A stretch of DNA of 64,000 nt from an uncultured Planctomycetaceae bacterium (GCA_963815195.1 CAWFGE010000006.1:64001-128000), one strand, 5' to 3'. Shown: positions 4,187 to 16,875, counted from the first letter of the stretch. Made by a program: numbers and translations. The notes: a model not told the origin generated them from the sequence alone.

Positions 4187-5405
4187 CTATTCCGATTTCG
4201 CAAGCCGGGGGGCTAAGACCTCTTTGGACAGGCGGATGATTTCGAGATGCTCCACGTCGCGGATCGCGGCGCCCAGATCGCTGGGGAGTTCGGCCGCCGG
4301 TTCCGCTCCTTTGGCTTTCAACCGAAAGTCCACGACAAACGCTCCCGCCTGGAGGCCGGGCGAGACGAACTCGGGCGGCCACAGGGCGCGGACGACCTTG
4401 CGGAAGTGCTGGGCCAAGAGAAACGTTCCCACCATCGAAAACCCGCCCATCACGACTTCCGCCACGCCCTCCGCCGGGCGGTAGCTGTAAAAAATCAACG
4501 CCGGCTCGCGATCACTGTTGGAAGGGATCATCTCCCAAGTGCCGGGTTCGCGTTCAAAGTAGATTCCCGGCTCCTCGGATGAGATGTGTTGGCCGCTGAG
4601 ATCCGCCGCCAGCACGCGGCCGCCGTGGCAGGAGGGCACGTTGACGTCGGTGTCGCGGTATCGATAAAAGAACGGGCACGCGCGGTCGCCGGGCTTCGAG
4701 ACGCGGTCCTGCGTGCCCCAAGGCGTTGCGGAAAACGCCCGCGCAATCGCCAACTCGCAAAGTCCGTTGCTTTTGACGGACCCCAAACACACGAGGGCCC
4801 GGCTGCCGGGGATGCCGTCGAACCGTTCATAAGCCGACGTCGCCTCCTCCTTCATTTGCTGGAACTCCGCATCGCGCTCGGCGGGTTTGGCTTCCTGTGA
4901 CCTCATGGAGCAGCTTCCGCACCATGTACTGGTCGAACCGCGGCGCGAGGTCGGCGGGAATCGGCTGCGGAACGAGCGGCGCATCTTGAAGCGGTTCGTC
5001 CGGGGCGAGCGAGCCCTGCTCGGTGCCGTAGAGTTCGTGCAAAAGCATGCCCTGCAAATACGAATCGGAGGCCGGGATCCACAGCAGCCCGGTGTCGTGC
5101 ATTTCGTGCCGAACCCCAAACGACATCACGAGCACCTGGCGTTCTGCGAGGAATGCCCAAAAATTTTCCGGTTCAAGCGAAAAGAGCCGGCCCGGTAAAT
5201 CGTAAGAAGAGAGGTGATGGGTATTGATCAAGTAGTCGCAAATCGCCCCCAGGCTGTTGAGCGAGAGATATTGCACTTCGTTTTTCAAAAGCGCCGAGAC
5301 CTGATGCCGCTCGAGTCCGGTTTCTTCCGAAATTTTTTTAATGGTGCCTCGTCCGGTGTCCCGGAGTTCGTTGAGGAGTTCCGCGAGTCGAAATCTAACT
5401 TGCAT
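4187..5405 (-). CDS. XRE/Cro-C1 HTH transcriptional regulator with large C-terminal domain (~405 aa); frameshift near 4915, probably an indel
   Basis: N-terminus MQVRFRLAELL..TIKKISEETGLERHQVSALLKNEVQYLSLNSLGAICDYL is a typical XRE HTH. ORFs 4827-5471 and 4187-5119 join if one base is removed at cggaagc. Confidence 0.7.
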
Positions 5406-5697
5406 AGGAAGCCTCTTATGGCGGTTTATTCTCCACAGAAACCTATGGCGGTTTGTTTTCCCAAAAGACACGGCTTTGGGCAGGAAGGACGCCGAAAGGA
5501 CGCACGAGTTGTCACTGTGTTCACTTTAGGATCCTTCATGGTTCATAAAAAAACAACAACGCAAGTATTTACTGAATAATATGTTAAGGCGTTAGACCCG
5601 AAGGTCTCCTGAAAGGCGCGATCCATGAGCCTTTCGTTTGTGTCAAAGTTTGCCGATTGATCCAAACAAGTCAACATTTCCGAATTGTAGATTTTTT

Positions 5698-6432: not shown

Positions 6433-7029
6433 ATGACTCTGCTCTCCCCGCATTCCAAGGCCTGGAGCCTGCGAAAAGAAAAAATCCTCCAGGTCCTCGG
6501 GGACTTCTCCCAGAAAAGTCCGGCGATGTCCTTGTTGAGTTTCGAAGACACCGGCGACGAGGTGCGGGGGATTGTCCAGTTCGAGACCGAGACCCTGGTG
6601 AAACTGCCGGGGCAAGACGTGCAACTGGCCGGTCCCGTGGTCGCCGGGATTCGCTATCACCACCTGTTCCAATCGCAGGCCCCCGTGCCCTGGGAACTCG
6701 TCACGATCCTGTTCCCGATGGCGGTGTATCACCCGAACGTGAATGCGGGCGGGGGGTTATGTCTCGGACATCCCGCGGCCAACGTGCCGATGGACTTGAT
6801 TCTCCACATGACCTGGGCGGCGCTGGTGCTCAACACCCGCCTGGTCACGACCACGGATTGGAACGTGTTCAACCGCGAGGCCGCCGCGTTCGTTCGCCAG
6901 CACAAGGGCCGGTTTCCGCTGACCGAACGGGGCCTGTTGGAAGCCGTTCCGCTTCCCGCCGCCGTCTCCCAAACCGCCGTTCAAAACCCGACCGCCCCGA
7001 CCCCGCCAAAGGAGGAAGCTCAATCATGA
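6433..7029 (+). CDS. Ubiquitin-conjugating enzyme E2 (UBC fold, canonical HPN...C active site)
   Basis: FPMAVYHPNVNAGGGLCLGH matches the UBC signature F-x-x-x-(I/V)YHPNV...G-x-(I/L)CL; downstream FNREAAAF matches the N-x-EAA helix. Confidence 0.85.
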   Translation: MTLLSPHSKAWSLRKEKILQVLGDFSQKSPAMSLLSFEDTGDEVRGIVQFETETLVKLPGQDVQLAGPVVAGIRYHHLFQSQAPVPWELVTILFPMAVYHPNVNAGGGLCLGHPAANVPMDLILHMTWAALVLNTRLVTTTDWNVFNREAAAFVRQHKGRFPLTERGLLEAVPLPAAVSQTAVQNPTAPTPPKEEAQS

Positions 7030-7907
7030 TTGCCGCCCAAAAGTCCGCCGTGCGCACCATACCCGATTGCCTGCTCAAATGCGGCTGGTCTCCGCGGGGC
7101 CGATTGCAGAATTCGTTCTGCCTGCAGACGCCCCAAGGCGAAGCCGTGCTCGAACGCCAGCCCGCGAATGCTCAAAGCGGGTGGACGGAATGGATTTTAG
7201 ATAGCCCGCATCTTCCAAAGCCGGAGCCGCAAGGCGTGTTCTCGGCCAATCGCCAGATCGAGGGGCCTTGGAAATTCGTGGTCACACCCGCGGGCGAGGT
7301 TATTTGCCGGGGCGATTTCCCACGGGAGGCGAACGTGACCGACGATGCGTTCGACCTGGCCGCGGGGCGAACCTGGTCGCCTTTGGAATTCTGGGCGGAG
7401 TCGGCGACGCACATCGCCCAAACCGGTTCGTCCTCTCTGGTCGATGCGCCCAAACCGCCGGCTCCGGCCTTGGTGCATTGGCTTAAGGAGCATGGCTTTG
7501 TGGCGTCGGCCGACGGCGAAGCGGTGAAGGTGACGGTTCCGCTCTCCGGCACGTTCCGCGAGGTCGCGGTCGATTGGGGCCAGGATGGAAACGTTCGGCT
7601 CCAAGCCGAGATCGGCCGGCTCGCGGGCTGGCCGGAATCTTCACGCGCCGCCGCGGAGGATTTTCTGGAGGAAGCCAATCGCCGGCTGCGGCTCGTCCGC
7701 GTGGCTCAGCCGGGCGAAGAGAAGGTGTATTGCCTGGAGGCGTGTTTTTGTGCGCCCGGTCCCGGTGTCTGGTTGCAGTCGGCCTTGGATGCCCTCTGCA
7801 CCGGCATGGCGCTCTTAGTTCAGCCGTTGGCCGCGCTCCGGGATCCCGGCGTGGCCGACATGCTCTTGGCCGGCAGTTCGGCCAAACGAAAAGGAGGTGT
7901 CGAATGA
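7026..7907 (+). CDS. Uncharacterised protein (293 aa), possibly with YbjN/T3SS-chaperone-like domain(s)
   Basis: ATGA overlaps with both neighbours (translational coupling); segments FLEEANRRLRLVRV...VYCLEACF and VFSANRQIEGPWKFVV...EVICRGDF resemble the YbjN fold pattern. Confidence 0.6.
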   Translation: MIAAQKSAVRTIPDCLLKCGWSPRGRLQNSFCLQTPQGEAVLERQPANAQSGWTEWILDSPHLPKPEPQGVFSANRQIEGPWKFVVTPAGEVICRGDFPREANVTDDAFDLAAGRTWSPLEFWAESATHIAQTGSSSLVDAPKPPAPALVHWLKEHGFVASADGEAVKVTVPLSGTFREVAVDWGQDGNVRLQAEIGRLAGWPESSRAAAEDFLEEANRRLRLVRVAQPGEEKVYCLEACFCAPGPGVWLQSALDALCTGMALLVQPLAALRDPGVADMLLAGSSAKRKGGVE

Positions 7908-8209
7908 CCGCAGTCTTGGACGCCCCCGTGATCCCGGATGAACTCACCATCGAAGTGAGCGATCCCACGGGGTTCCAGCACGTCACATTGGAAGGGGTCC
8001 GGGCCTCGGCCACCACCAGCGACATTGTCGCGATGGCAAAGGGTGCGCTGCGTTTGCCCCCGAACGTCCTGTGGGACCTTCGGGAAGAACGCAGCAGCCG
8101 CTTGCTGCCGCCCGATTCTCGTATCGGTGATGTGGCCGGGGAAGCAGCCCCGCACGTCAAGGTGACGATGCAGCCGGATGCCGGCCTCGCCGGCCATCGG
8201 GTTTGCTAA
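7904..8209 (+). CDS. Ubiquitin-like beta-grasp protein (YukD/EsaB-like), C-terminus ...QPDAGLAG-HRVC
   Basis: RBS aaggaggt, ATGA overlap; LTIEVSD-TG..VTL (b1-b2), TTSDIVAMAKGALRLP (helix), WDLR..RLLPPDSRIGDV..VKVTMQP ubiquitin-fold pattern; context next to E2 and JAB. Confidence 0.7.
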   Translation: MTAVLDAPVIPDELTIEVSDPTGFQHVTLEGVRASATTSDIVAMAKGALRLPPNVLWDLREERSSRLLPPDSRIGDVAGEAAPHVKVTMQPDAGLAGHRVC

Positions 8210-8388
8210 GGCCCGATCCGCACCCGCCGGCGATGGCGGGCGGGTGCGGGTTTTGATTTCTGCATTTTGTCGGGTCCGCTGTGCGGGCCACGGAATGACA
8301 ACAAAACACCCGAACCATCACAACGAATCTGGTCCGCACAGCGGACCCTACAAGACTGAATCACCCAAACGACAAGGAGCCGACGCCC

Positions 8389-9501
8389 ATGAAAACATCA
8401 ACTTCTCCGCTGGCCTTTGCCGATCCCGCAGCCGGTGCGAATGACGCAAAACGGTTTGGCTACCGCCTGGTGTTCCAGCGGGCGTCCGACGGCAAACGCC
8501 TGGATACAGGCTTCGCCGATCCGTTCTGGCTGGAGAGTCTCAAAGAGCAAGCGATTTTCCAGGCCCAGCGCCGGGGCCTTGTCGCTGCCGATCCCGCGCA
8601 GGCCGTCGTCTCGGAGCATCCGCTATTCGCGGAAAATACCGACGGCCGGCTCAAGGGATTCGCGATGGCCGCGGGCGAAGGGGAATCCTCGCATTGGACG
8701 CATTTTGAATTGGCGTCCGCCTTCTCCGCCCCGGCGGAAACGGCCCTCCAAAAACTTCTGGAAAGCAAACAACTCGGCACCGACGACAAAGTCACGTTCC
8801 AAATCTTCGCCGAGCCGGCGTCCGAAACCCAGGAAGATGCACCGCAAAACCCCGGCGTGCGGGCGACGGTCCAGCGCAATCCGCTGCCGCTCCTCGCAGG
8901 CCGGCTCTCCGATTTTCTCCCCGATGCCAAACCCAGCGGCGAGATGCAGGAGAAGGACCATCACCTGTTTCTGCCGCGAAAGCTGTTCGAGCAGGCGCGG
9001 GACTATTGCTTCAAAACCGGCAAACAGGAAGGCGGGGCGATGATCGTGGCCCGGATGTATCGCCAGACCGAACCGGAGCCGGACCTCTTCGTCGTGGCAC
9101 ACGCGGTCGTGGAGCTTCGCCATGCCAAGCAGTCGCAGTTCGGGTTCGAGCCGACGTCGGAAACCTTCGCGGACCTGGGAACCCAGCTCAATCTCCGGCG
9201 GACGCGGCTGGGTTTTCCAGAAGAGGTGCCCGCGGTTTTGGTGCATAACCATCCGTTCGAGCCGTCGGTCCGCGACGACGGCGAAGCCAACTGCCCGGCC
9301 TGCCCGCTGCAGCAGGAGTGCCAACTGACCTCGAGCTTTTATAGCGCCAGCGATGTGAATTTCCACCTCAGCATGTACGGCAGCCAGCCGTTCGTGGCGG
9401 GGATTGTGATCGGTCTCACGCCCCGCCGGGAAGACGACGTCCGCATGTTCATTTTGGACGGCACCAAAACCCGCGAACGCGGCTTTCATTGGATCGAATA
9501 G
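8389..9501 (+). CDS. JAB/MPN+ metallopeptidase (putative deconjugase) with N-terminal extension and Cys-rich insert
   Basis: RBS aaggag; E in KQEGGAM, HNHP, FYSASD = E...HxH...SxxD JAMM motif; insert CPACPLQQEC between HxH and SxxD. Confidence 0.8.
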   Translation: MKTSTSPLAFADPAAGANDAKRFGYRLVFQRASDGKRLDTGFADPFWLESLKEQAIFQAQRRGLVAADPAQAVVSEHPLFAENTDGRLKGFAMAAGEGESSHWTHFELASAFSAPAETALQKLLESKQLGTDDKVTFQIFAEPASETQEDAPQNPGVRATVQRNPLPLLAGRLSDFLPDAKPSGEMQEKDHHLFLPRKLFEQARDYCFKTGKQEGGAMIVARMYRQTEPEPDLFVVAHAVVELRHAKQSQFGFEPTSETFADLGTQLNLRRTRLGFPEEVPAVLVHNHPFEPSVRDDGEANCPACPLQQECQLTSSFYSASDVNFHLSMYGSQPFVAGIVIGLTPRREDDVRMFILDGTKTRERGFHWIE

Positions 9502-9530
9502 CCCCGTCACAAAAACCTCTCGTCTTCTTA

Positions 9531-9639
9531 AGCCGCGCACGAAGTCAGCGGTTTTCACTTTGGTTTTTCTTGAGCCGCGCACGAAGTCAGCGGTTTTCAA
9601 GTTATCAGAAACTTAGATCCGCTTACTTCGTGCGCGGCT
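9531..9639. repeat. REP-like cluster: 27-bp direct repeat plus inverted copy
   Basis: agccgcgcacgaagtcagcggttttca at 9531 and 9573; ccgcttacttcgtgcgcggct at 9619-9639. Confidence 0.8.
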
Positions 9640-9690
9640 CAGTGGTTTTTTGGAAATTGAATCTTCATCCCCAATTGGAAGGAACGATTT

Positions 9691-11400
9691 ATGTCGCTCA
9701 AACCTCCCCAGAATCCCGTTGACTTCCACAAAGCCATCGAAATCTGCCGGCAGTTGAATCTGCCCCCCAAGGCCCGGGCGGAGACGCTCATCTATTTAGT
9801 GATGGAGCAGGGGCTGGATTTGGCGCCGGCCCTTGCGGAGATTCTCAATGAGGCCGACGAAGGCCGGGTCAAAAAGGCCGAGGAAGACGAGGAACACACC
9901 CCTCTGTTGCCGGTGCGGTTCATCGCGCATGTGAAAGTGGGCGGCAAAGCGTACGCGGTCGTGACCGGTCCGCAGGGCACGACTTATCTGCCTTGCTCCG
10001 ATCAGGAGATCAAGGGGCTCGAGTTCGGGGATTCGGTGCTCGTCGATTCCAAGAAAGGCCGCGTGGTCGGCCGCGACGGCGCGGTCCCCCCGGCCGGGGA
10101 AGTCGTGCCGGTGGACAGCTTGTCCGCCGACGATGCCGGGCAGGTCGTGGTCAAAGTCCAGGAGCAGGAAGTCATGGCCCGCGTGCCGCTCAAACTCCGC
10201 CGGGAATCGCCGATCCAGCCGGGACAGCGGGTGATCTTCGACGCGGCGACGCGGTTCATCGACCAGGTCGTCCACAGCGGTTCCGACGGCGAGGAGTTGT
10301 TGACCGATCTGGATTCGCTGGATTCGGTCTCCCGCGCCGATTTGGGCGCGCCGCATCCGGTGCTGGACGACATGCTGTTCCGCATCCGCCAGGACGTTTT
10401 GTATCCCGAATGGGCCCGGCAAATGGGGGCCCGGCTTTCGGCGAGCTACCTGCTCTCCGGCCCGACCGGCACCGGCAAAACGATGCACCTCAAAGTCCTG
10501 GCCCGCGAAGTGGCCGACTTCCTCGAAGACCTCACCGGCGAACGCACCAGTCCGCTGATCACCGTCGATGCCAATTCCTTCTATTCGCCCTGGTTCGGCT
10601 CGACGGAAAGCAAGATTCATTCCTTCTTCGAGCGGCTCCACAAATTGGGGGCCAAACAGATGACGACCAAGGACGGCGTCATCGCGACGCGGCCGCTGAT
10701 CGTTACGCTCGAAGAATGCGAAGCCCTCCTGCGGTCGCGCGGCGAAATGGGAGGCAGCGGGCATTTGTTCGATCGGCCTCTGTCGCTGATCCTGCAGAAA
10801 ATCAGTTCGCTGGGGAACGATCTCCACATGCCGGTGTATTTCGTCGCCACCACCAATCGGCCCGACTTGTTGGATGCGGCGGCCCGGCGGCGGATCGGGA
10901 TTCGGCACGTCGTGTTGGGCACATTGACTGCCGCCCAAGCCGCGAGCGTCCTGGAAACCAAACTCGGGCCTTCGATGAAGTACCGCGGGGCGGAGGCTGC
11001 GGATCAATCCCGGCAGCAACTCGTCCAGCAGGTGCTGAATTTCCTGTTCGCGGGGGATGATGCGGCGCAGGGGATTGCGGAGGTGCGGTTCCTCGACAAC
11101 AACCGCCGCACGCTCTGCCGCCGGCATCTCGTGACCGGGGCGATGCTGGAAGAAGCCGTGAGCGCCGCCACGGACGACTGCCTCAAAGAAAGTGCCGAGG
11201 CGGGCGAACTCGTGGGCATCGATGCCCAGGGGGTGATTCGCTCGCTGGAGTCGCAATTCCGCAGCCTGGCGGGAACGCTGCGAGCCCACAACCTGCCCGA
11301 ATATTGCCCGCAATGGTTCGCGGACGAGCCGTTGCGCGTGGAGCACGTCCGCCCGCTCGCCGGCCGCACCCGCCGCCCGGCCTCGTGGGCGGTCAATTAA
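9691..11400 (+). CDS. ARC/Mpa-like (proteasomal-type) AAA+ ATPase
   Basis: Short N-terminal helical region, two OB-like segments (LEFGDSVLVD; IQPGQRVIFD), Walker A GPTGTGKT, pore loop SPWFGSTESKI, Walker B variant IVTLEECE, ATTNRPDLLDAAARRR, and ARC-like AEVRFLDNNRRTL..HLVTGAMLEEAV. Confidence 0.8.
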   Translation: MSLKPPQNPVDFHKAIEICRQLNLPPKARAETLIYLVMEQGLDLAPALAEILNEADEGRVKKAEEDEEHTPLLPVRFIAHVKVGGKAYAVVTGPQGTTYLPCSDQEIKGLEFGDSVLVDSKKGRVVGRDGAVPPAGEVVPVDSLSADDAGQVVVKVQEQEVMARVPLKLRRESPIQPGQRVIFDAATRFIDQVVHSGSDGEELLTDLDSLDSVSRADLGAPHPVLDDMLFRIRQDVLYPEWARQMGARLSASYLLSGPTGTGKTMHLKVLAREVADFLEDLTGERTSPLITVDANSFYSPWFGSTESKIHSFFERLHKLGAKQMTTKDGVIATRPLIVTLEECEALLRSRGEMGGSGHLFDRPLSLILQKISSLGNDLHMPVYFVATTNRPDLLDAAARRRIGIRHVVLGTLTAAQAASVLETKLGPSMKYRGAEAADQSRQQLVQQVLNFLFAGDDAAQGIAEVRFLDNNRRTLCRRHLVTGAMLEEAVSAATDDCLKESAEAGELVGIDAQGVIRSLESQFRSLAGTLRAHNLPEYCPQWFADEPLRVEHVRPLAGRTRRPASWAVN

Positions 11401-11403
11401 CCC

Positions 11404-11552
11404 GGCGAGCGGGGGGCGTCAGCCCCCTGGTTACGTCGAGAGTTGAAACCGCGAAGAACCCAAAGAGACACAAACAGAACCAAAACCGAAAAGCGACAAT
11501 GTGAACCAACCGGTAGCCAATACAACCAGGGGGCTGACGCCCCCCGCTCGCC
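11404..11552. repeat. REP-like element, perfect 29-bp inverted repeat
   Basis: ggcgagcggggggcgtcagccccctggtt (11404-11432) / aaccagggggctgacgccccccgctcgcc (11524-11552); related arms at 20216-20244, ~43416, ~51017, ~59940. Confidence 0.85.
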
Positions 11553-11583
11553 TGAAACATTTTTTTCAACAAGGAGAACTCTC

Positions 11584-11898
11584 ATGAACTTTCGATTGCT
11601 CAAGAAGAAACTCGATTCCGAAATCCAACCGCAACAGCCCCTCGGCGGCGGAGGCGATCCTTCCGGCGGCGATGGCTGTCCGCAGGGCAGCGTGTTCTGC
11701 CGGCATGGGATTCATTCCGGCTGGTTTCCCATCGCGGGGATGCGGCTGGGCGACGCCCGGCCGATTCTCAATCAGTTGCTCAACATCGACCCCGAAGCCG
11801 TCGCCGTGATCAACGGCCAGATTGTCAACGACGATTTCATCATCGGCGAGGATGTCGAGCTTTTGAACTTCGTCAAGAAATCTTCAATCAAAGGCTGA
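11584..11898 (+). CDS. Ubiquitin-like/ThiS-MoaD-type beta-grasp protein 1 (C-terminal Gly, ...KKSSIKG)
   Basis: RBS aaggag; GMRLGDAR..LNIDPEAVAVINGQIVNDDFIIGEDVELLNFVK..G pattern; Gly/Pro-rich N-terminal tail. Confidence 0.8.
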   Translation: MNFRLLKKKLDSEIQPQQPLGGGGDPSGGDGCPQGSVFCRHGIHSGWFPIAGMRLGDARPILNQLLNIDPEAVAVINGQIVNDDFIIGEDVELLNFVKKSSIKG

Positions 11899-11901
11899 CC
11901 G

Positions 11902-12201
11902 ATGACGCGTCCTTCAAACCAACATCCCAAACCCGCAAAAGCCGTCCTCGAAAACGAGGCCGCTCGCGAAGGCCCCGAAGAATCGCCCCAGGGCATCTTT
12001 TGCCGTCACGGGATTTTTTCGGGCCGGTTTCCCATTGCGGGCCTGCGGCTCGGCGAGGTTCGGCCGGTGCTCAGCCGGTTGCTTAACATCGATCCCGAAG
12101 CCGCGGCGGTGGTGGATGGGCGGTTGGTGGGAGACGACTTTCTCATCGGTGACGACGTGGAACTTTTGAATTTCATCAAACCTTCTGGAATCATGGGGTG
12201 A
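11902..12201 (+). CDS. Ubiquitin-like beta-grasp protein 2 (tandem paralogue, ...KPSGIMG)
   Basis: 47/67 identical residues to 11584-11898 over the core (counted by hand); unrelated N-terminal tail. Confidence 0.8.
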   Translation: MTRPSNQHPKPAKAVLENEAAREGPEESPQGIFCRHGIFSGRFPIAGLRLGEVRPVLSRLLNIDPEAAAVVDGRLVGDDFLIGDDVELLNFIKPSGIMG

Positions 12202-13025
12202 CGTTTATGACTGCATCGACGCTCGAGGAGATCCTCCTCAACGACAAAGAATACGAAGTTCGCGGCGGGGACGGCGAACCGTTCCGGGGCCAACTCGGCG
12301 ACCTCATCGACGCGGTGCGGAAAAACGCCATCGTCGGATTCGAGGAAAACCCGCTACCCAAGAACAACCTGGCGTGGAAAATCGAAGCGGGGCCGCTCAC
12401 GGTGTGCATTGTGGAATTGGAGCCGGCCTTTCGCGTGCTCCAGTGGATTCACCCGGAAAGCGCGATGCCTTACGGTCCCGAGGCGATTTACACGCCCCGC
12501 AGCCTGGCCACGCCTTACGTGGTGCTCAAGGTGTCTTTCGTGGCGGGACACATCACCTCGCGGGCGGAACTGTTTTACCGCAACCGCCGGCTGGCGAATT
12601 TGAATGATGAACTCTACTGGCCGAACCTGCTCAACGTCAGCCCCCACGCCTACGGCTGCCGGGCCTGGATCTGCACGCAGTATCTGCGGACCGAGCATTT
12701 TCAGCCGGGCGTCACCCAGGGGCTCGATGCGCTGCTCCATCATCTGTGGGGCGGCGGATTCAACCGCTCCAGCGAACGTCACGAAGGCAACTCGGCCTTC
12801 AGCAAGGCGGCCAAGGACAAGATCGATTCCCGCGTGACCGACGTGGGCCGCTGGGAGCAGGAATCGATCAAGAACCCCCGCTTCGTGTTGGATGTGAAAT
12901 GGAAACCGGTGGGCGTCACCGTGCGGCAGTTGATTCAGGATGAGCTGGATCACCACAAACCCGTCCGCGACCTGAGCCGCACGGGGGAACTCGTCAACCT
13001 GCTCTCCATGACCCGCCGGTCGTGA
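12198..13025 (+). CDS. Prokaryotic E2-like protein (Prok-E2 family D / PRTRC protein B-like)
   Basis: GTGA overlap with the Ubl stop; SLATPYVVL, ELYWPNLLNVS...WICTQ (candidate catalytic Cys), LWGGGFN; flanked by Ubl, JAB and ThiF. Confidence 0.65.
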   Translation: MTFMTASTLEEILLNDKEYEVRGGDGEPFRGQLGDLIDAVRKNAIVGFEENPLPKNNLAWKIEAGPLTVCIVELEPAFRVLQWIHPESAMPYGPEAIYTPRSLATPYVVLKVSFVAGHITSRAELFYRNRRLANLNDELYWPNLLNVSPHAYGCRAWICTQYLRTEHFQPGVTQGLDALLHHLWGGGFNRSSERHEGNSAFSKAAKDKIDSRVTDVGRWEQESIKNPRFVLDVKWKPVGVTVRQLIQDELDHHKPVRDLSRTGELVNLLSMTRRS

Positions 13026-13083
13026 ATGACCAAAGAATGATCGCAACTCTGTTTTCAAGCGGACGGGGTCCCACGCCCCTGAT

Positions 13084-13144
13084 CGCAGCGAAGGGCGTGG
13101 CGATCGCAAAGACCACGCCCTTCGTTCCTCAGGGCGTGCCACCC
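13084..13144 (+). repeat. Dispersed palindromic repeat; inverted copy at 59835-59895
   Basis: cgcagcgaagggcgtggcga...gaccacgcccttcgttcctcagggcgtgccaccc, near-identical reverse complement at 59835-59895. Confidence 0.8.
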
Positions 13145-13202
13145 GTGTCACTCAAGTCTCTAGCCACTTTTGTGAAACACAACTCGCAAAGGACCAACTG
13201 CC

Positions 13203-14078
13203 ATGAACTTTGAGATTCTCATCAAAACGCTCCACACCGAGCTGCCCGAACTCAAGCCGGGGCAGTTTCGGTATGTGCTCGGGCGGGACGGTTTGCACGT
13301 GGAACGGGCCACGCCGATGTATACGAGCAGCGTGAAAGTCGACGGCCCGGTTCCGTTTCTCGCGGAGCATCCCCAGCAATGCCGGCTCAATTGCGGGCCG
13401 ATTCCCTCGAACATGCTCCGGCAGATGGTGGGCTTTTTCCAGGCGGCCTACCACATGCACGGCGGCGAAGCGGCCCTCGTTCTGTTGTACTTTCCCGCAA
13501 CCGGAAAGTTCGCCTGGCATTGCCCGAAGCAGACGATTCGGATGTATTCGTCGTGGGGCAAGTTCCGCGCGGACGATTCGGTGGAATACGACAACCCGCT
13601 GTCGCTGCCGGCGGGCGCGGTGCAATTCGGCGATGCCCATTCCCACATCGGCCCACCGATCCCTTCGATCATGGATCAAAACGATGAAGCCCATTTGGAT
13701 GGCCTGCATATCATCGTGGGAAACATCTCCAGCCGGTTTCCACGATGGCACATTGATTTTTGCATCGACGGCCACCGCTTCTCGGTGCCGACCGACATGA
13801 TTCTCGAAGCCGTCCCCGAAGCCCCATTTCCGGAACCGCCGGTCGGATGGACGCAGCAAATCCAGTTGGTTTATCCCTCGTGGAAAACCGAATCCTACTC
13901 GGCTTCCAAGCCGCGAACGTCCACGTGGAGCAGTTCAAGCCACTCCCGCTTCGGCTCCTCCAAGAACCAGAACGGTTCCGGCAGCCGGGACTCTGTGGAA
14001 GAGAACGACGAGTCGCCTCCGTCTGCATCCGAGAAACCCGCCGCCGAATCCCAACCCAGCGACGAGGATGAATCATGA
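13203..14078 (+). CDS. Prok-JAB metallopeptidase (PRTRC protein A-like)
   Basis: YVLGRDG N-terminus, GPIP..LRQMVGFF, GEAALVLLY, DAHSH..PSIMDQNDE..DGLHIIVGNI; Ser-rich/acidic disordered tail. Confidence 0.85.
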   Translation: MNFEILIKTLHTELPELKPGQFRYVLGRDGLHVERATPMYTSSVKVDGPVPFLAEHPQQCRLNCGPIPSNMLRQMVGFFQAAYHMHGGEAALVLLYFPATGKFAWHCPKQTIRMYSSWGKFRADDSVEYDNPLSLPAGAVQFGDAHSHIGPPIPSIMDQNDEAHLDGLHIIVGNISSRFPRWHIDFCIDGHRFSVPTDMILEAVPEAPFPEPPVGWTQQIQLVYPSWKTESYSASKPRTSTWSSSSHSRFGSSKNQNGSGSRDSVEENDESPPSASEKPAAESQPSDEDES

Positions 14079-14896
14079 TGAATCCCGACACCGAAAAACC
14101 AACGACCGCCGCGGAGAAAATCGCCCGGCAACTGGAAACCCGCTGGCTCGCCGAGGGCCGGATTGTGGTCATCGGCCTGGGCGGAATCGGGTCGATTCTC
14201 GCCCGGTATCTGGTGCTGTTTCTGGCGAGCCTGCCGGACGAGTTTCGCGTGCTGCTTGCCGACGGCGACAGTTTTGAACCGGACAACACCTACCGCATGG
14301 ATGTGCCCGGCTATCAGAACAAGGCCGTGGCGATGGACATGGAACTCAGCGAGCGGTTCGGCCGCGAGGGTTTGGTGATCCGCTCGAAAGCGAAATATCT
14401 CAGCCCCGGCAACACGGACGACCTGATCCGCGAGGGCGACTTCGTGCTGCTCTGCGTCGACAACCATGCCACCCGCAAACTCGCCAGCGACCGGTTAAGC
14501 GAACTCGATAACGGGGCGATCGTCTCCGCGGGCAACGACGGCGTCGGCGACGGCGAGCGGGGCACTTATGGGAACCTGCAGATCTACGCCCGGCAAAACG
14601 GGGAAACCATCGCCGGCGGGCCCTTCGATATGTTTCATCCCGAAATCGCCGAGCCGGAGGATGTCTTCCCCGACGAAATGGACTGCATGGAACTGGCCGC
14701 ACAAGGGGCGCCGCAACTTTTGCCGATGAACCTGGCGATGGCCTCGGCGATGCTCTCGGCGGTGCTCCGGTTTCTGATGCCTCCGCCAGACGAATCGATG
14801 TACGACGAGGTGTGCCTCGATATTTTGGAAGCCACGGCCGTTCCGCAATGGCTGACCCGGCCGCAAAAACGCCCGAAGCCTTCGACCCCCGTTTGA
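14075..14896 (+). CDS. ThiF/E1-like activating enzyme (PRTRC ThiF-like)
   Basis: ATGA overlap; IGLGGIGS, DGDSFEPDNTYR, NKA, CVDNHATR, candidate catalytic Cys in MDCMELAAQGAPQLLPMN. Confidence 0.9.
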   Translation: MMNPDTEKPTTAAEKIARQLETRWLAEGRIVVIGLGGIGSILARYLVLFLASLPDEFRVLLADGDSFEPDNTYRMDVPGYQNKAVAMDMELSERFGREGLVIRSKAKYLSPGNTDDLIREGDFVLLCVDNHATRKLASDRLSELDNGAIVSAGNDGVGDGERGTYGNLQIYARQNGETIAGGPFDMFHPEIAEPEDVFPDEMDCMELAAQGAPQLLPMNLAMASAMLSAVLRFLMPPPDESMYDEVCLDILEATAVPQWLTRPQKRPKPSTPV

Positions 14897-14921
14897 CCAA
14901 CCGAAGAGAGAGGAGCCTTTA

Positions 14922-15548
14922 ATGAAAACGTTCTGCCTGCATCCCATCCGCCGGGCGGTGCTCGATTCCGATCCGCCGCTGTTGTGCATTTCGTCCGCCG
15001 ATTGCCGGGAGGCCCCGCGGATGGTCTGGATCACCAAACGGGGCCGCTTGCGGAGTTCCCCTGCTCAACAAGTCCACGAAACCGCCCGGCGGATGGCGCG
15101 CCTCTTGTACCGCGATGCGGGCCACGGCAATTCGCAATGGCTCTTTGCGCCGCTGTGTGACGAAGTGCTGCACAATGGCATCCGGCCGCTGGCGATCGCG
15201 ATCATCGAACCGGGCGACGTGCTCGCCCTCGGCGAAGAATGCTGGTTCGCGTCGGAACTCTGGCGGCCGGCCCCGGTCCCGGCTCCGGAAAACATCGCCG
15301 AGAAGGAATGCTCCGTCTGCGGCGGCCCGCTCAAATTGGCCCCGGTCATCCAATGCCCCTGCGGGCGGTATTATCACCTCGAGCATCCCGAAACCCCGGA
15401 CGATCCGCAGGCGTTGAATTGCTACCTGACGGCCGGCATGTGCGGATTGTGCGAACGCAAGCCGAGCCTCGAACCGCAGTTTCTCCCAACGCCGCCGGAA
15501 GAATTGATCCCGGAAGACCACCTCGCCGCCGCGCTTGCCGCGGTGTGA
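14922..15548 (+). CDS. FHA-like + C4HC3 zinc finger (Prok-RING/PHD-like) protein, candidate E3
   Basis: RBS aggag; VLHNGIRPLAIAIIEPGDVLALG resembles the FHA C-terminal strands; CSVC-x11-CPC-x4-H-x14-C-x6-CGLC gives eight Zn ligands. Confidence 0.65.
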   Translation: MKTFCLHPIRRAVLDSDPPLLCISSADCREAPRMVWITKRGRLRSSPAQQVHETARRMARLLYRDAGHGNSQWLFAPLCDEVLHNGIRPLAIAIIEPGDVLALGEECWFASELWRPAPVPAPENIAEKECSVCGGPLKLAPVIQCPCGRYYHLEHPETPDDPQALNCYLTAGMCGLCERKPSLEPQFLPTPPEELIPEDHLAAALAAV

Positions 15549-15711
15549 ATGCGTTTCGCGATTGGAAAGGATTGAACCACCGATAAACGAATAAGACGAA
15601 TAAAGACCCACATGGCTTTTATCCGCGCGCCTCCGCGTTCTCCGCGGTCCATATCTTTGGCTTTGTTTGATTCGTCGCTCAACGCGGCTTGATCTTGTGA
15701 GAGGTATTGTC

Positions 15712-16875
15712 ATGGCTCAAGAGGTTTTATCCGAACACGATTTGGCTTCGTGTTGGCCGGCGATTCCCAGTGTGGACTGGCGGCTCCTCGGACAAACGCG
15801 ATTTGTGTTCGTGGGCGCGGGGGCGGTGAATCGGCCGCTGGCATTCCAGTTGGCGTGGTTGGGGATGAAGGGGTGCATCGTCATCGATCCCAAACCGTAC
15901 AAATCCCAAAGCGTCATTTCGCAATGCAAACCTTGCGAAGTCGGGCGGTTTAAAGCCGAAGTTGTCGCGGAGGAGCTTCAGAAGCGGGGCGTCGCGGCGA
16001 CGCCCTTCGTGAAAGACGTGGACGTGGTGCCGCCCGGCTATTTGGAAGGGGACAGCCTCGTCATCGTGGCGGTGGACAATCGCCGGGCCGACATTTGTGC
16101 GAACCGCTTCGCCGCCCGCATGCGCCGGCCGCTGGTGAAAGTCAACGTGGATCCCAATTACCTCACCGCGTCCATTCGCTGTTACGACCTGCGAAACGGT
16201 CCCCTCGCTCTGTGCGCGGAATGCCAAATGACGGATCGGCATTACGAAGAGCAACGGCACCCCTTAAGCTGCGACGGCGGCGAAGTGGGAGAACAAGCCA
16301 CAGGCAGCCCGCGGCCGCTCAGCCAGTTCGCCGCGAATGCCGCGGCTTTGGCCGTCGCCCAAATCGCCGGTTCGCCCGACGAATGGGCCAAGACCTGGTG
16401 GGGAAAGCAATGGCAGCAAAACCTGTTGGGCGGCCGGGGCTTTTTTTCGGATCTCGAACCCAACCCCCATTGCCGCTGGGATCACGCCGCGGCTTGGGAT
16501 CCGCTGATCTTCCTGCCGCACGATCAGCCCATCAGCCTCTCGCATCTGGCCAAGGGAACATTCGGCTCAATGCCGACTTGGGAAGTCGAGTTTTCCGCGC
16601 GGGTCGCGACGCGGATGGTCTGTTCCCAATGCCGAGCCTCCGAGGAAGGCGTGTGGTGGGTCGCGGAACTCGACCGGCCGGTGACGCGTTGCGGTTGCGG
16701 CGGCGAGAGTTTTGCGCTGCCGTTCTTCACCCACAAAAAACTCCCGGCCGCGGAGCTCGAATCCGTTTGGAACCGGCCGCTCGCCGCGTGGGGCGTGACG
16801 CCGGGTTCTGTTCTCCGCTTCGCCTCGGCTTCCAAGAACCAAATGTACTGTTTGCGCGTTCCAAGATTGCCTTAG
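15712..16875 (+). CDS. E1/ThiF-family enzyme with C-terminal Zn ribbon and ubiquitin-fold-like domain
   Basis: RBS gaggt; FVGAGAV, EVGRFKAEV, AVDNRRA, CAEC, PLSC (candidate catalytic Cys), CSQC...CGC, RPLAAWGVTPGSVLRF. Confidence 0.8.
   Translation: MAQEVLSEHDLASCWPAIPSVDWRLLGQTRFVFVGAGAVNRPLAFQLAWLGMKGCIVIDPKPYKSQSVISQCKPCEVGRFKAEVVAEELQKRGVAATPFVKDVDVVPPGYLEGDSLVIVAVDNRRADICANRFAARMRRPLVKVNVDPNYLTASIRCYDLRNGPLALCAECQMTDRHYEEQRHPLSCDGGEVGEQATGSPRPLSQFAANAAALAVAQIAGSPDEWAKTWWGKQWQQNLLGGRGFFSDLEPNPHCRWDHAAAWDPLIFLPHDQPISLSHLAKGTFGSMPTWEVEFSARVATRMVCSQCRASEEGVWWVAELDRPVTRCGCGGESFALPFFTHKKLPAAELESVWNRPLAAWGVTPGSVLRFASASKNQMYCLRVPRLP

Follow-up and report, generated by a model that had tools for sequence, protein, structure and literature searches.

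Can an ATPase of the ARC/Mpa type be served by a ubiquitin-like tag in the place of Pup? This question is raised by a cluster of twelve open reading frames (ORFs) at positions 6433-16875 of a 64,000-nucleotide stretch of DNA from an uncultured Planctomycetaceae bacterium (GCA_963815195.1 CAWFGE010000006.1:64001-128000), the whole of which is called the window here. The cluster encodes three ubiquitin-like proteins (Ubl1 to Ubl3), two E1-like (E1a, E1b), two E2-like (E2a, E2b) and two JAB-type proteins (JAB1, JAB2), a finger protein, a YbjN-like protein and an ARC/Mpa-type ATPase (ARC). The original prediction, made from the DNA sequence of the window, had read it as a complete tagging cascade with its own unfoldase, acting independently of Pup. 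Judged from its relatives, the operon suggests that the second ubiquitin-like tag took the place of Pup. The reading favored here, on sequence and predicted structures and with a rough probability of 0.6, is that two parallel conjugation cascades feed a proteasome-free ARC unfoldase, Ubl2 being the ARC-engaging tag that replaced Pup. Cascade 1 (Ubl1, E1b, E2a, the FHA-finger protein as E3, the YbjN-like protein as adaptor, and JAB1) would form a fixed upstream block, and cascade 2 (Ubl2/Ubl3, E1a, E2b and JAB2) a block of the 6d/PRTRC kind, situated in the place held by Dop-Pup-PafA in sister operons.

Conservation of the Operon and the Gene Slot Downstream of ARC

Relatives were collected from 401 genomes spread evenly over the phylum of the host (probably Planctomycetota). 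The ATPase of the window found matches in eight genomes (E 1e-25), the JAB1 profile in 33, with a full-length match in 13, and the E2b profile in five. The union of ATPase and full-length JAB1 matches comprises 14 genomes, across which the cluster was traced down to approximately 25% ATPase identity. ARC directly follows JAB1 in each of the 13 genomes with a full-length JAB1; G390 has no JAB1 at the locus. Thus the ATPase stays with these genes elsewhere, a co-occurrence on which the original prediction had staked its case. The common gene order is RING-E1b-E2a-(YbjN)-Ubl1-JAB1-ARC, followed by a second block. The window and locus L007, from another uncultured Planctomycetaceae, are permuted in that the RING-E1b pair has moved to the operon end; L007 has all twelve genes, an ATPase 77% identical to that of the window, and both flanks in common with it. 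Named homologues of the locus come from Gemmataceae, Rhodopirellula and Planctomycetes, and the ATPase was found in none of the 20 genomes of the sample that belong to the family of the host. As other families of the phylum repeat this gene set and its order, the cluster is not a chance assembly. The 20 weaker JAB1 matches that are not full-length belong, where read, to E1-JAB or E2-JAB operons with no ARC within about 1.5 kb on either side.

The slot downstream of ARC is filled in one of two ways. Dop-Pup-PafA-like genes follow in seven of the 14 genomes and the genes for Ubl2, E2b, JAB2 and E1a in five, the host included, the remaining two loci being cut inside ARC; the two blocks never occur together at one locus. 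In G094, a contig break falls between the two, with ARC ending one contig and cascade 2 starting another. The Dop/PafA-like genes were recognized by a family scan in three genomes and by a profile built for the purpose in four more, and Pup-like ORFs were found in all seven (L017, L019, L020, L077, L078, L079, L082), where they lie between the Dop-like and PafA-like genes and encode 64-70 amino acids (aa) ending in GGQ, GGE or PGE. All five genomes matched by the E2b profile carry this ARC, and cascade 2 without ARC was found in none of the 401. No match to a Pup ligase was obtained in the four other cascade-2 genomes of the sample. At the locus in the window pup, dop and pafA are absent, and they are linked to arc in the seven sister operons. 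The Pup-independence claimed by the original prediction therefore holds for this locus but not as a separate origin, since the operon descends from, or is sister to, one with Dop-Pup-PafA behind the same ARC. Among 16 further loci (L007, 14 metagenomic and one viral), Ubl2 lies downstream of ARC in 14 and two end too soon; L026 and L027 appear to derive from one organism.

Some of these loci show peculiarities of their own. A gene of 400-440 aa with weak AAA/Cdc6-lid or STAND matches stands between ARC and Ubl2 at three of them (L016:10774-12027, L021:12038-13363 and L024:1507-2709) and is absent from the window. L007 has frameshifts in ARC and E1a (10001-11705 and 14274-15094), reflecting either assembly error or decay. 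On contig C1 of the host genome (G000), a lone PafA/Dop-like gene lies on the minus strand (L005:1369-3139), split into two ORFs, of which the first contains a long hydrophobic insertion, and no ARC or Pup gene was seen beside it; G401 likewise has just one such gene, standing alone and broken into pieces on a different contig. Both fit the single-copy planctomycete PafA/Dop paralogue described in the accessible part of PMC7947786.

The phylogeny of the ATPase follows the content of the slot. In an IQ-TREE tree of 20 sequences, the ten cascade-2 ARCs form one side of a branch with 100/100 support, the other side including the seven Pup-linked and two actinobacterial ARCs; L021, L022, L024, L028, L029, L030 and L076 (partial, near-duplicate or with downstream context unknown) and all proteins without context were omitted. 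In a FastTree tree of 57 sequences, one Pup-linked pair is sister to the cascade-2 clade. The TIGR03689 model scores the Pup-linked ARCs at approximately 290-297 bits and the cascade-2-linked ones at 94-102 bits. On the cascade-2 side, 107 of 110 sequences have EE as their Walker B motif; on the other side, 36 of 37 have DE. Most of these sequences lack a known gene context. As the actinobacterial ARC is Pup-linked, the most parsimonious history has cascade 2 replacing Pup once, the direction being something that we infer.

One further ARC-like gene was encountered. A TIGR03689 scan of the 401 genomes was swamped by matches of the FtsH/Cdc48 type; among the matches listed, at least seven are full-length, six of them Pup-linked and the seventh from G222. 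On contig C49 of G222 (L124:11036-16451, minus strand), a different ARC-like ATPase stands directly before genes for a Ubl, an E2-like protein, a JAB protein and a 796-aa E1, the Ubl having a charged N-terminal tail and a C-terminal extension past its Gly. ARC may have become joined to a Bil-like cascade independently here, and the locus may represent a second instance of a tag switch that arose on its own.

A Pup-Like Tail on Ubl2 and a Viral Copy

The disordered N-terminal segment of Pup is the threader by which Mpa engages its substrates, according to the accessible text of PMC8755798. The Ubl2 proteins and the Pup-like proteins from the sister operons alike have an N-terminal tail of 25-35 residues that starts out basic and becomes Pro- and Gly-rich. 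A three-part threshold describing such a tail was passed by 11 of 15 Ubl2 and four of five Pup-like proteins (five of the seven being used), by none of 12 Ubl1 and by 2% of 762 background proteins. The likeness of the Ubl2 tail to Pup is suggestive only.

On a viral contig (L036:7376-13344), ARC occurs with JAB2, E1a, a Ubl2-E2b fusion and a further E2b in a setting of HNH and ParB genes, and no cascade-1 gene was found in 7.3 kb upstream. Consequently, ARC and cascade 2 can travel alone. The phage-like contig is possibly the result of phage capture, or a counter-defense.

These observations bear on the question which tag the ATPase serves. ARC might instead act on Ubl1-tagged targets, in which case cascade 2 would be a separate PRTRC-like unit that landed next to it and ousted the Pup genes but did not assume their function. 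The constant adjacency of JAB1 and ARC speaks for this, as do the G222 operon, where ARC heads a single Ubl-E2-JAB-E1 block, and operons of type 6d, which are known without any ATPase as far as the consulted part of PMC1779556 goes. We nevertheless regard it as unlikely: cascade 2 was never found without ARC in the sample, the viral contig pairs ARC with cascade 2 only, a free N-terminal tail is lacking in each of the 12 Ubl1 proteins, and ARC changed at the very branch where cascade 2 appears.

An ARC-Type ATPase Without Its Proteasome

The ATPase is a true offshoot of ARC/Mpa, as judged from sequence profiles and a predicted structure. A profile built from 47 homologues has Mpa (5kwa) as its top match in the Protein Data Bank (PDB; E 8e-34, positions 86-521), and the AlphaFold model (pLDDT 85) has Mpa 7px9 as its top Foldseek match (E 6e-28, TM 0.62-0.68). 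The model comprises an N-terminal long helix (residues 26-68), two OB-like beta-barrel domains (strands within 72-194) and an AAA+ module. With 93.7 bits, the protein stays far under the TIGR03689 cut-off of 504.75.

The C-terminal GQYL/HbYX docking motif, with which both actinobacterial control ARCs end (as GQYL), is absent from the ATPase; C-termini are variable in the family, and a loose HbYX pattern occurs in one of 147 members. A pair of 20S alpha and beta subunits was found in none of 14 operon-bearing genomes (13 of the 14 sample genomes plus G401) searched with PF00227, Pup-linked operons included. As the PF00227 control was positive in archaeal genomes, 20S subunits would have been detected. 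Six of the genomes gave no match and eight a single one, each HslV-like by motif, and an HslU gene lies beside the HslV-like gene in the four genomes where this was seen. The genome of the host (94.6% complete) has one match, HslV-like and beside HslU. Proteasomal degradation was therefore rejected as the default fate of targets. The original prediction had left unfolding and degradation side by side; the tag-and-unfold half is supported, and the proteasomal half is not.

Degradation might still follow if ARC handed its unfolded substrates to a protease other than the 20S proteasome, i.e., HslV, ClpP, Lon or FtsH. The HslV-like genes in eight of the 14 genomes can be counted in favor, as can the clearance of unfolded products by general proteases that occurs in any cell. 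This pathway appears improbable, as the remaining six genomes gave no PF00227 match, HslV was accompanied by its own HslU where neighbors were read, the conserved block includes no protease gene, and the loose HbYX fit is confined to the single family member mentioned above.

A proteasome-free ARC could also be a poor motor or none at all: the Ubl2-linked ATPase could be slow or dead and serve as a hexamer that receives Ubl-tagged proteins or holds them as a scaffold. Its Walker B motif reads EE, with the Asp-to-Glu change prevailing on the cascade-2 side, the second region of homology (RPGR loop) is shortened, and the drop in TIGR03689 score between the Pup-linked and cascade-2-linked ARCs points the same way. 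Against this stand the Gly and Lys of Walker A, the catalytic Glu342, the sensor-1 Asn389, Arg400/Arg401 and the pore residues Phe302-Gly303, all invariant in 47 of 47 sequences down to 34% identity, the pore loop of the protein in the window being the aromatic W301-F302-G303. Such a scaffold is improbable, slightly more so than a hand-over to another protease.

The Two Putative Conjugation Cascades

Profile and structure searches, as proposed in the original prediction, identified ARC, E1a and E1b strongly and E2a, both JAB proteins and Ubl1 well; Ubl2/Ubl3, E2b, the RING or PHD nature of the finger and the FHA domain were placed less firmly. Scans of single operon proteins against family libraries found little beyond ThiF and AAA. 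The claim of a stable linkage between an ARC-type ATPase and two ubiquitin-like cascades, their catalytic residues intact, is borne out.

In cascade 1, E2a shows the canonical HPN..C signature, with N102, C110 and G112 invariant in 12 of 12 aligned sequences; among the 60 profile matches shown, all are E2 enzymes (eukaryotic E2s; best E 6.7e-4), and the match to PF00179 has E 0.068. The YbjN-like gene, the 'unknown' second gene of the original prediction, can now be placed by a PF10722 match of 23.1 bits (cut-off 22) and sits between E2a and Ubl1 in most loci. Ubl1 has weak profile matches to ubiquitin-fold chains and aligns with the Pfam YukD-positive Ubl of a second operon on contig C17 of the same genome (hhalign 97%, E 1e-10). 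Its C-terminal Gly is conserved across 13 sequences, and the extension past it would have to be trimmed by a JAB protein. JAB1 keeps an E, two H, three C, an S and a D invariant in 12 sequences and weakly matches BRCC36; both JAB1 and JAB2 retain the E..HxH..S..D motif. The finger protein has seven Cys and one His (C4HC3) invariant in ten of ten sequences, a pattern described for prokaryotic RING domains in the part of PMC11354881 consulted. It scores 12.8 bits against Prok-RING_1 (cut-off 29.1), its PDB profile matches mix PHD and RING chains with PHD chains above, and only an N-G pair is conserved in the FHA-like domain. The E1b profile matches MoeB, ThiF and UBA1 (E 2e-20 for MoeB to 5e-16), and C168, C171, C187, C254, H258, C304, C307, C327 and C329 are invariant in ten sequences; its C-terminal extension is, by analogy, a putative ubiquitin fold. 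With the C4HC3 finger as candidate E3 alongside an E1, a canonical E2, a JAB protein and a Ubl, the tri-ligase component set of cascade 1 is complete.

In cascade 2, the terminal Gly of Ubl2 is invariant in 15 sequences. Ubl2 and Ubl3 are ThiS-like by language-model features alone (0.93); the PDB profile search with Ubl2 gave no match below E 0.47, with SAMP2 at E 1. Ubl2 and Ubl3 share 65% protein identity and a 210-nt direct repeat (73%); of the loci read, just the window and L007 show the doubling. Consequently, three Ubl genes are present as claimed, but three distinct Ubl types were rejected, Ubl2 and Ubl3 being one type. In E2b, C156 is kept in 99 and H179 in 93 of 100 sequences, and 12 of the 120 best E2b homologues are Ubl2-E2b fusions. 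Its AF2 model (pLDDT 96) reaches a Z of at most 4.8 in structural comparison (best E2 chain Z 4.6, rmsd 3.3, 81 residues aligned), with E2 chains making up most of the top 20 of this weak list. Foldseek gave no match at E 0.001, and neither a Pfam E2 family, in a scan of 100 members, nor a TIGR E2 model matched. JAB2 scores below the cut-off of TIGR03735 (E 5e-5, 22.9 of 101.8 bits); its JAB-N domain is suggested by this match and by DUF2016 (E 0.19), and the Prok-JAB match is also weak. For cascade 2, the PRTRC model TIGR03736 likewise stays below its cut-off (19.6 of 144.75 bits). E1a matches PF00899 with 46.9 bits and keeps the Gly loop, DGD, K, DNH and Cys in eight sequences. Residues that bind nucleotide are kept in both E1 proteins, each of which also has an invariant Cys.

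A pathway like ThiS/ThiF or MoaD/MoeB that carries sulfur or modifies peptides, in place of protein conjugation, would suit the best E1b matches (MoeB, ThiF) and the ThiS-like Ubl2, but is very improbable in view of two Cys-bearing E2-type proteins, a candidate E3, the interchange with the pupylation block, the Ubl2-E2b fusions and a conserved block without any sulfurtransferase or biosynthetic enzyme.

Proposed Mechanism

In the proposed scheme, each JAB protein would trim its own Ubl to the conserved Gly, and each E1 would adenylate that Ubl and hand it over by thioester to its own E2, so that the Ubl becomes attached to a lysine of the target. The ARC hexamer would then bind the Ubl2-tagged protein, the flexible N-terminal tail of Ubl2 being threaded through the aromatic pore loop as Mpa does with the N-terminus of Pup. 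ARC would unfold the target or pull it from a complex without coupled proteolysis, and the tag would be recycled by JAB. The two tags may work one after the other, with the target chosen or marked by cascade 1 and then cleared for extraction by cascade 2; this is the most speculative step.

Several points weigh against two cascades feeding a proteasome-free ARC through Ubl2. JAB1, not Ubl2, is the most constant neighbor of ARC (13 of 13). With the Walker B change and a shortened second region of homology, ARC could hydrolyze ATP poorly or not at all, and the E2 fold of E2b is weakly supported. The thresholds of the tail comparison were chosen after the sequences had been seen, any Ubl with a disordered tail would pass them, and Ubl3 of the window itself fails. 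The Pup-linked ARCs are unresolved among themselves in the IQ-TREE tree, and the Pup-to-Ubl direction depends on two actinobacterial outgroups and the FastTree placement. The host genome does retain one PafA/Dop-like gene, which stands alone and in two pieces on a different contig. Finally, all genomes are incomplete assemblies (approximately 88-95%), so that absences mean 'not found.'

A wider evolutionary proposal, to which we would give somewhat less than even odds on the sequence comparisons, is that ARC exchanged Pup for a tag with the ubiquitin fold. An E1-E2 cascade would have taken over the site of Dop-Pup-PafA, with the new tag keeping a Pup-like threading tail. Combined with the upstream E1-E2-E3 cascade, this would give an extraction machine that works with two tags and no proteasome. 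Such a machine would be the bacterial counterpart of ubiquitin-p97 in function, and an extant intermediate linking pupylation with unfolding directed by ubiquitin.

Gene Layout and Genomic Neighborhood

The genes of the operon are listed in Table 1. All ORFs are present on the plus strand in the sequence given by the original prediction; its count of eleven co-oriented genes has to be raised to twelve, which matches its own gene list. The overlaps that it reported are found as well: E2a/YbjN, YbjN/Ubl1 and JAB2/E1a are joined by ATGA, and Ubl3/E2b by GTGA only if E2b starts with the GTG at 12198 and not with the alternative ATG at 12207. Gaps of 163-189 nt occur at six junctions and one of 25 nt at another. 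The GC content of the operon block (0.60-0.64) agrees with that of the 64-kb window.

Table 1. Genes of the operon and the adjacent upstream gene, with positions in the window.
Feature	Position	Strand	Remarks
E2a, UBC-type E2, 198 aa, cascade 1	6433..7029	+	H100-P-N102, catalytic C110
YbjN-like, 293 aa	7026..7907	+	PF10722 match; probable substrate adaptor or chaperone
Ubl1, 101 aa, putative beta-grasp tag, cascade 1	7904..8209	+	conserved C-terminal Gly and short extension
JAB1, 370 aa, JAB/MPN+ metallopeptidase with Cys-rich insert, cascade 1	8389..9501	+	E214, H286, H288, S319, D322 by motif
ARC/Mpa-type AAA+ ATPase, 569 aa	9691..11400	+	profile, Foldseek, TIGR03689
Ubl2, 104 aa, putative beta-grasp tag ending in Gly, cascade 2	11584..11898	+	N-terminal tail of ~30 residues, basic then Pro/Gly-rich
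Ubl3, 99 aa	11902..12201	+	recent tandem duplicate of Ubl2
E2b, divergent E2-like, 272 aa, cascade 2	12207..13025	+	C156, downstream H179
JAB2, 291 aa, JAB-N and JAB peptidase of the PRTRC-A/6d kind, cascade 2	13203..14078	+	weak family matches, conserved motif
E1a, ThiF-type E1, 273 aa, cascade 2	14075..14896	+	PF00899; conserved Cys204
FHA-like domain and C4HC3 binuclear finger, 208 aa, candidate E3 of cascade 1	14922..15548	+	conserved Cys/His
E1b, 387 aa, cascade 1	15712..16875	+	catalytic C187, two Zn sites, C-terminal extension
Upstream gene, 132 aa	5798..6196	+	lineage-specific; probably outside the core

Palindromic or dispersed repeats occupy gaps of the operon at 8267-8353, 9525-9641, 11404-11552 and 13022-13213. 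An ORF in the last of these was rejected as a thirteenth gene, as the genome holds dozens of dispersed intergenic repeats that match it and L007 lacks it. The 132-aa upstream gene has no family match in the library scans and, among the loci compared, a counterpart (40% identical) in L007 only. Further upstream, at 4190-5471 on the minus strand, lies a divergent Cro/C1-type HTH gene, split into two ORFs here and present as one 425-aa ORF in L007; it is a candidate regulator of the operon.

As to its biological setting, the original prediction had offered stress proteostasis and antiphage defense. A role in conflict is slightly favored over one in stress because of the patchy spread of the operon and its viral copy. 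Counted against it are the flanks, where one of 38 proteins from six loci is a clear defense gene (AbiEi; one more has a weak repeat-domain match), and the same genomic site in L007. PADLOC found no system-specific model among the operon genes.

Comparison With Known Systems

The operon is real, conserved and uncharacterised, and it is a variant built from known kinds. A literature search found neither an ARC with two Ubl cascades nor a swap of Pup for a Ubl; most subscription journals lay outside its coverage, and Burroughs 2009, 2011 and 2012 may contain the operon. The closest precedent is a single sentence on a Ubl-conjugation system coupled to the Pup system in Thermofonsia and Planctomycetes, with a proposed link to target degradation, in the accessible text of Kaur et al. 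(2020; PMC7159879). This is very probably the Pup-linked sister operon, i.e., planctomycete pupylation genes with a tri-ligase Ubl block next to them. That text names no ATPase, no absence of 20S and no second Ubl cascade replacing Dop-Pup-PafA. Nothing relevant was contained in PMC8195603 or in the available part of PMC7203096.

With the actinobacterial Pup-ARC/Mpa system, the locus shares a homologous ATPase with the same domain order and an aromatic pore loop. It differs in having no Pup, Dop or PafA, no GQYL terminus, an EE Walker B motif, and a folded beta-grasp tag with predicted E1/E2 activation. Unfolding without 20S has a precedent in proteasome-less Corynebacterium, where ARC disassembles pupylated ferritin (PMC8223512, as far as accessible).

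Cascade 2 resembles operon type 6d in its small Gly-ended Ubl, an E2-like protein with a Cys and a downstream His, a JAB protein with an N-terminal domain and a ThiF-type E1; the conserved Cys and downstream His characterize the 6d E2 family in the consulted part of Iyer et al. (2006; PMC1779556). It differs from 6d/PRTRC in scoring far below the PRTRC model cut-offs and in having no alpha-helical fifth gene in the window, where the block includes no further conserved gene; no ATPase belongs to 6d in the description given there. The Ubl-E2-JAB-E1 order of cascade 2 is shared with Bil and Bub, for which protein conjugation is proven. The Bil E1 has tandem adenylation domains, and Bub forms Tyr/Ser oxyesters and has DUF6527 (10.1101/2024.11.21.623966; PMC11601596; PMC10557695). 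Unlike Bil, E1a and E1b each have one ThiF stretch, and unlike Bub, Cys is conserved in both E1 and both E2 proteins and no DUF6527 match appeared in the operon scan. The accessible portions of these sources describe no E3-like finger, unfoldase or pair of cascades for Bil or Bub. Our equation of type 6d with PRTRC is an assumption.

Prokaryotic RING tri-ligase operons, reportedly treated by Burroughs et al. in 2011, share a Ubl, a canonical-type E2, an E1, a JAB protein and a C4HC3 finger with cascade 1. The host genome contains a second Ubl operon on contig C17 (G000:C17, approximately 58.3-67.3 kb; L085:341-9267, minus strand), with a YukD-type Ubl, an E1 in two ORFs, a JAB protein, a membrane FHA protein, a UBC E2 and two Prok-RING_1 membrane proteins, one of them with a trypsin-like domain. 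There, Prok-RING_1 scores above the cut-off, in membrane proteins, and no ATPase occurs in the stretch read, whereas the operon in the window has a finger below the cut-off, ARC, YbjN and a second cascade.

In eukaryotes, the ubiquitin-Cdc48/p97 system performs tag-directed, ATP-driven extraction for which coupling to a protease is not required. ARC would be a single-ring and not a double-ring motor, and no homologues of the adaptors are present, so that the likeness would be functional only.

The value of the operon lies in a matched pair, the same upstream block and ATPase lineage being followed by either Pup or a Ubl. This makes testable how a proteasomal ATPase changes tags, an issue fundamental to the ubiquitin-proteasome system. 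It also bears on whether bacteria run a RING-type three-enzyme cascade, and all parts are small soluble proteins of environmental, non-pathogenic bacteria that can be reconstituted. For CBASS Cap2, Bil and Bub, an unfolding motor is not described in the accessible portions of the literature examined, and bacterial ARC/Mpa is known as a reader of Pup; the operon family described here joins both.

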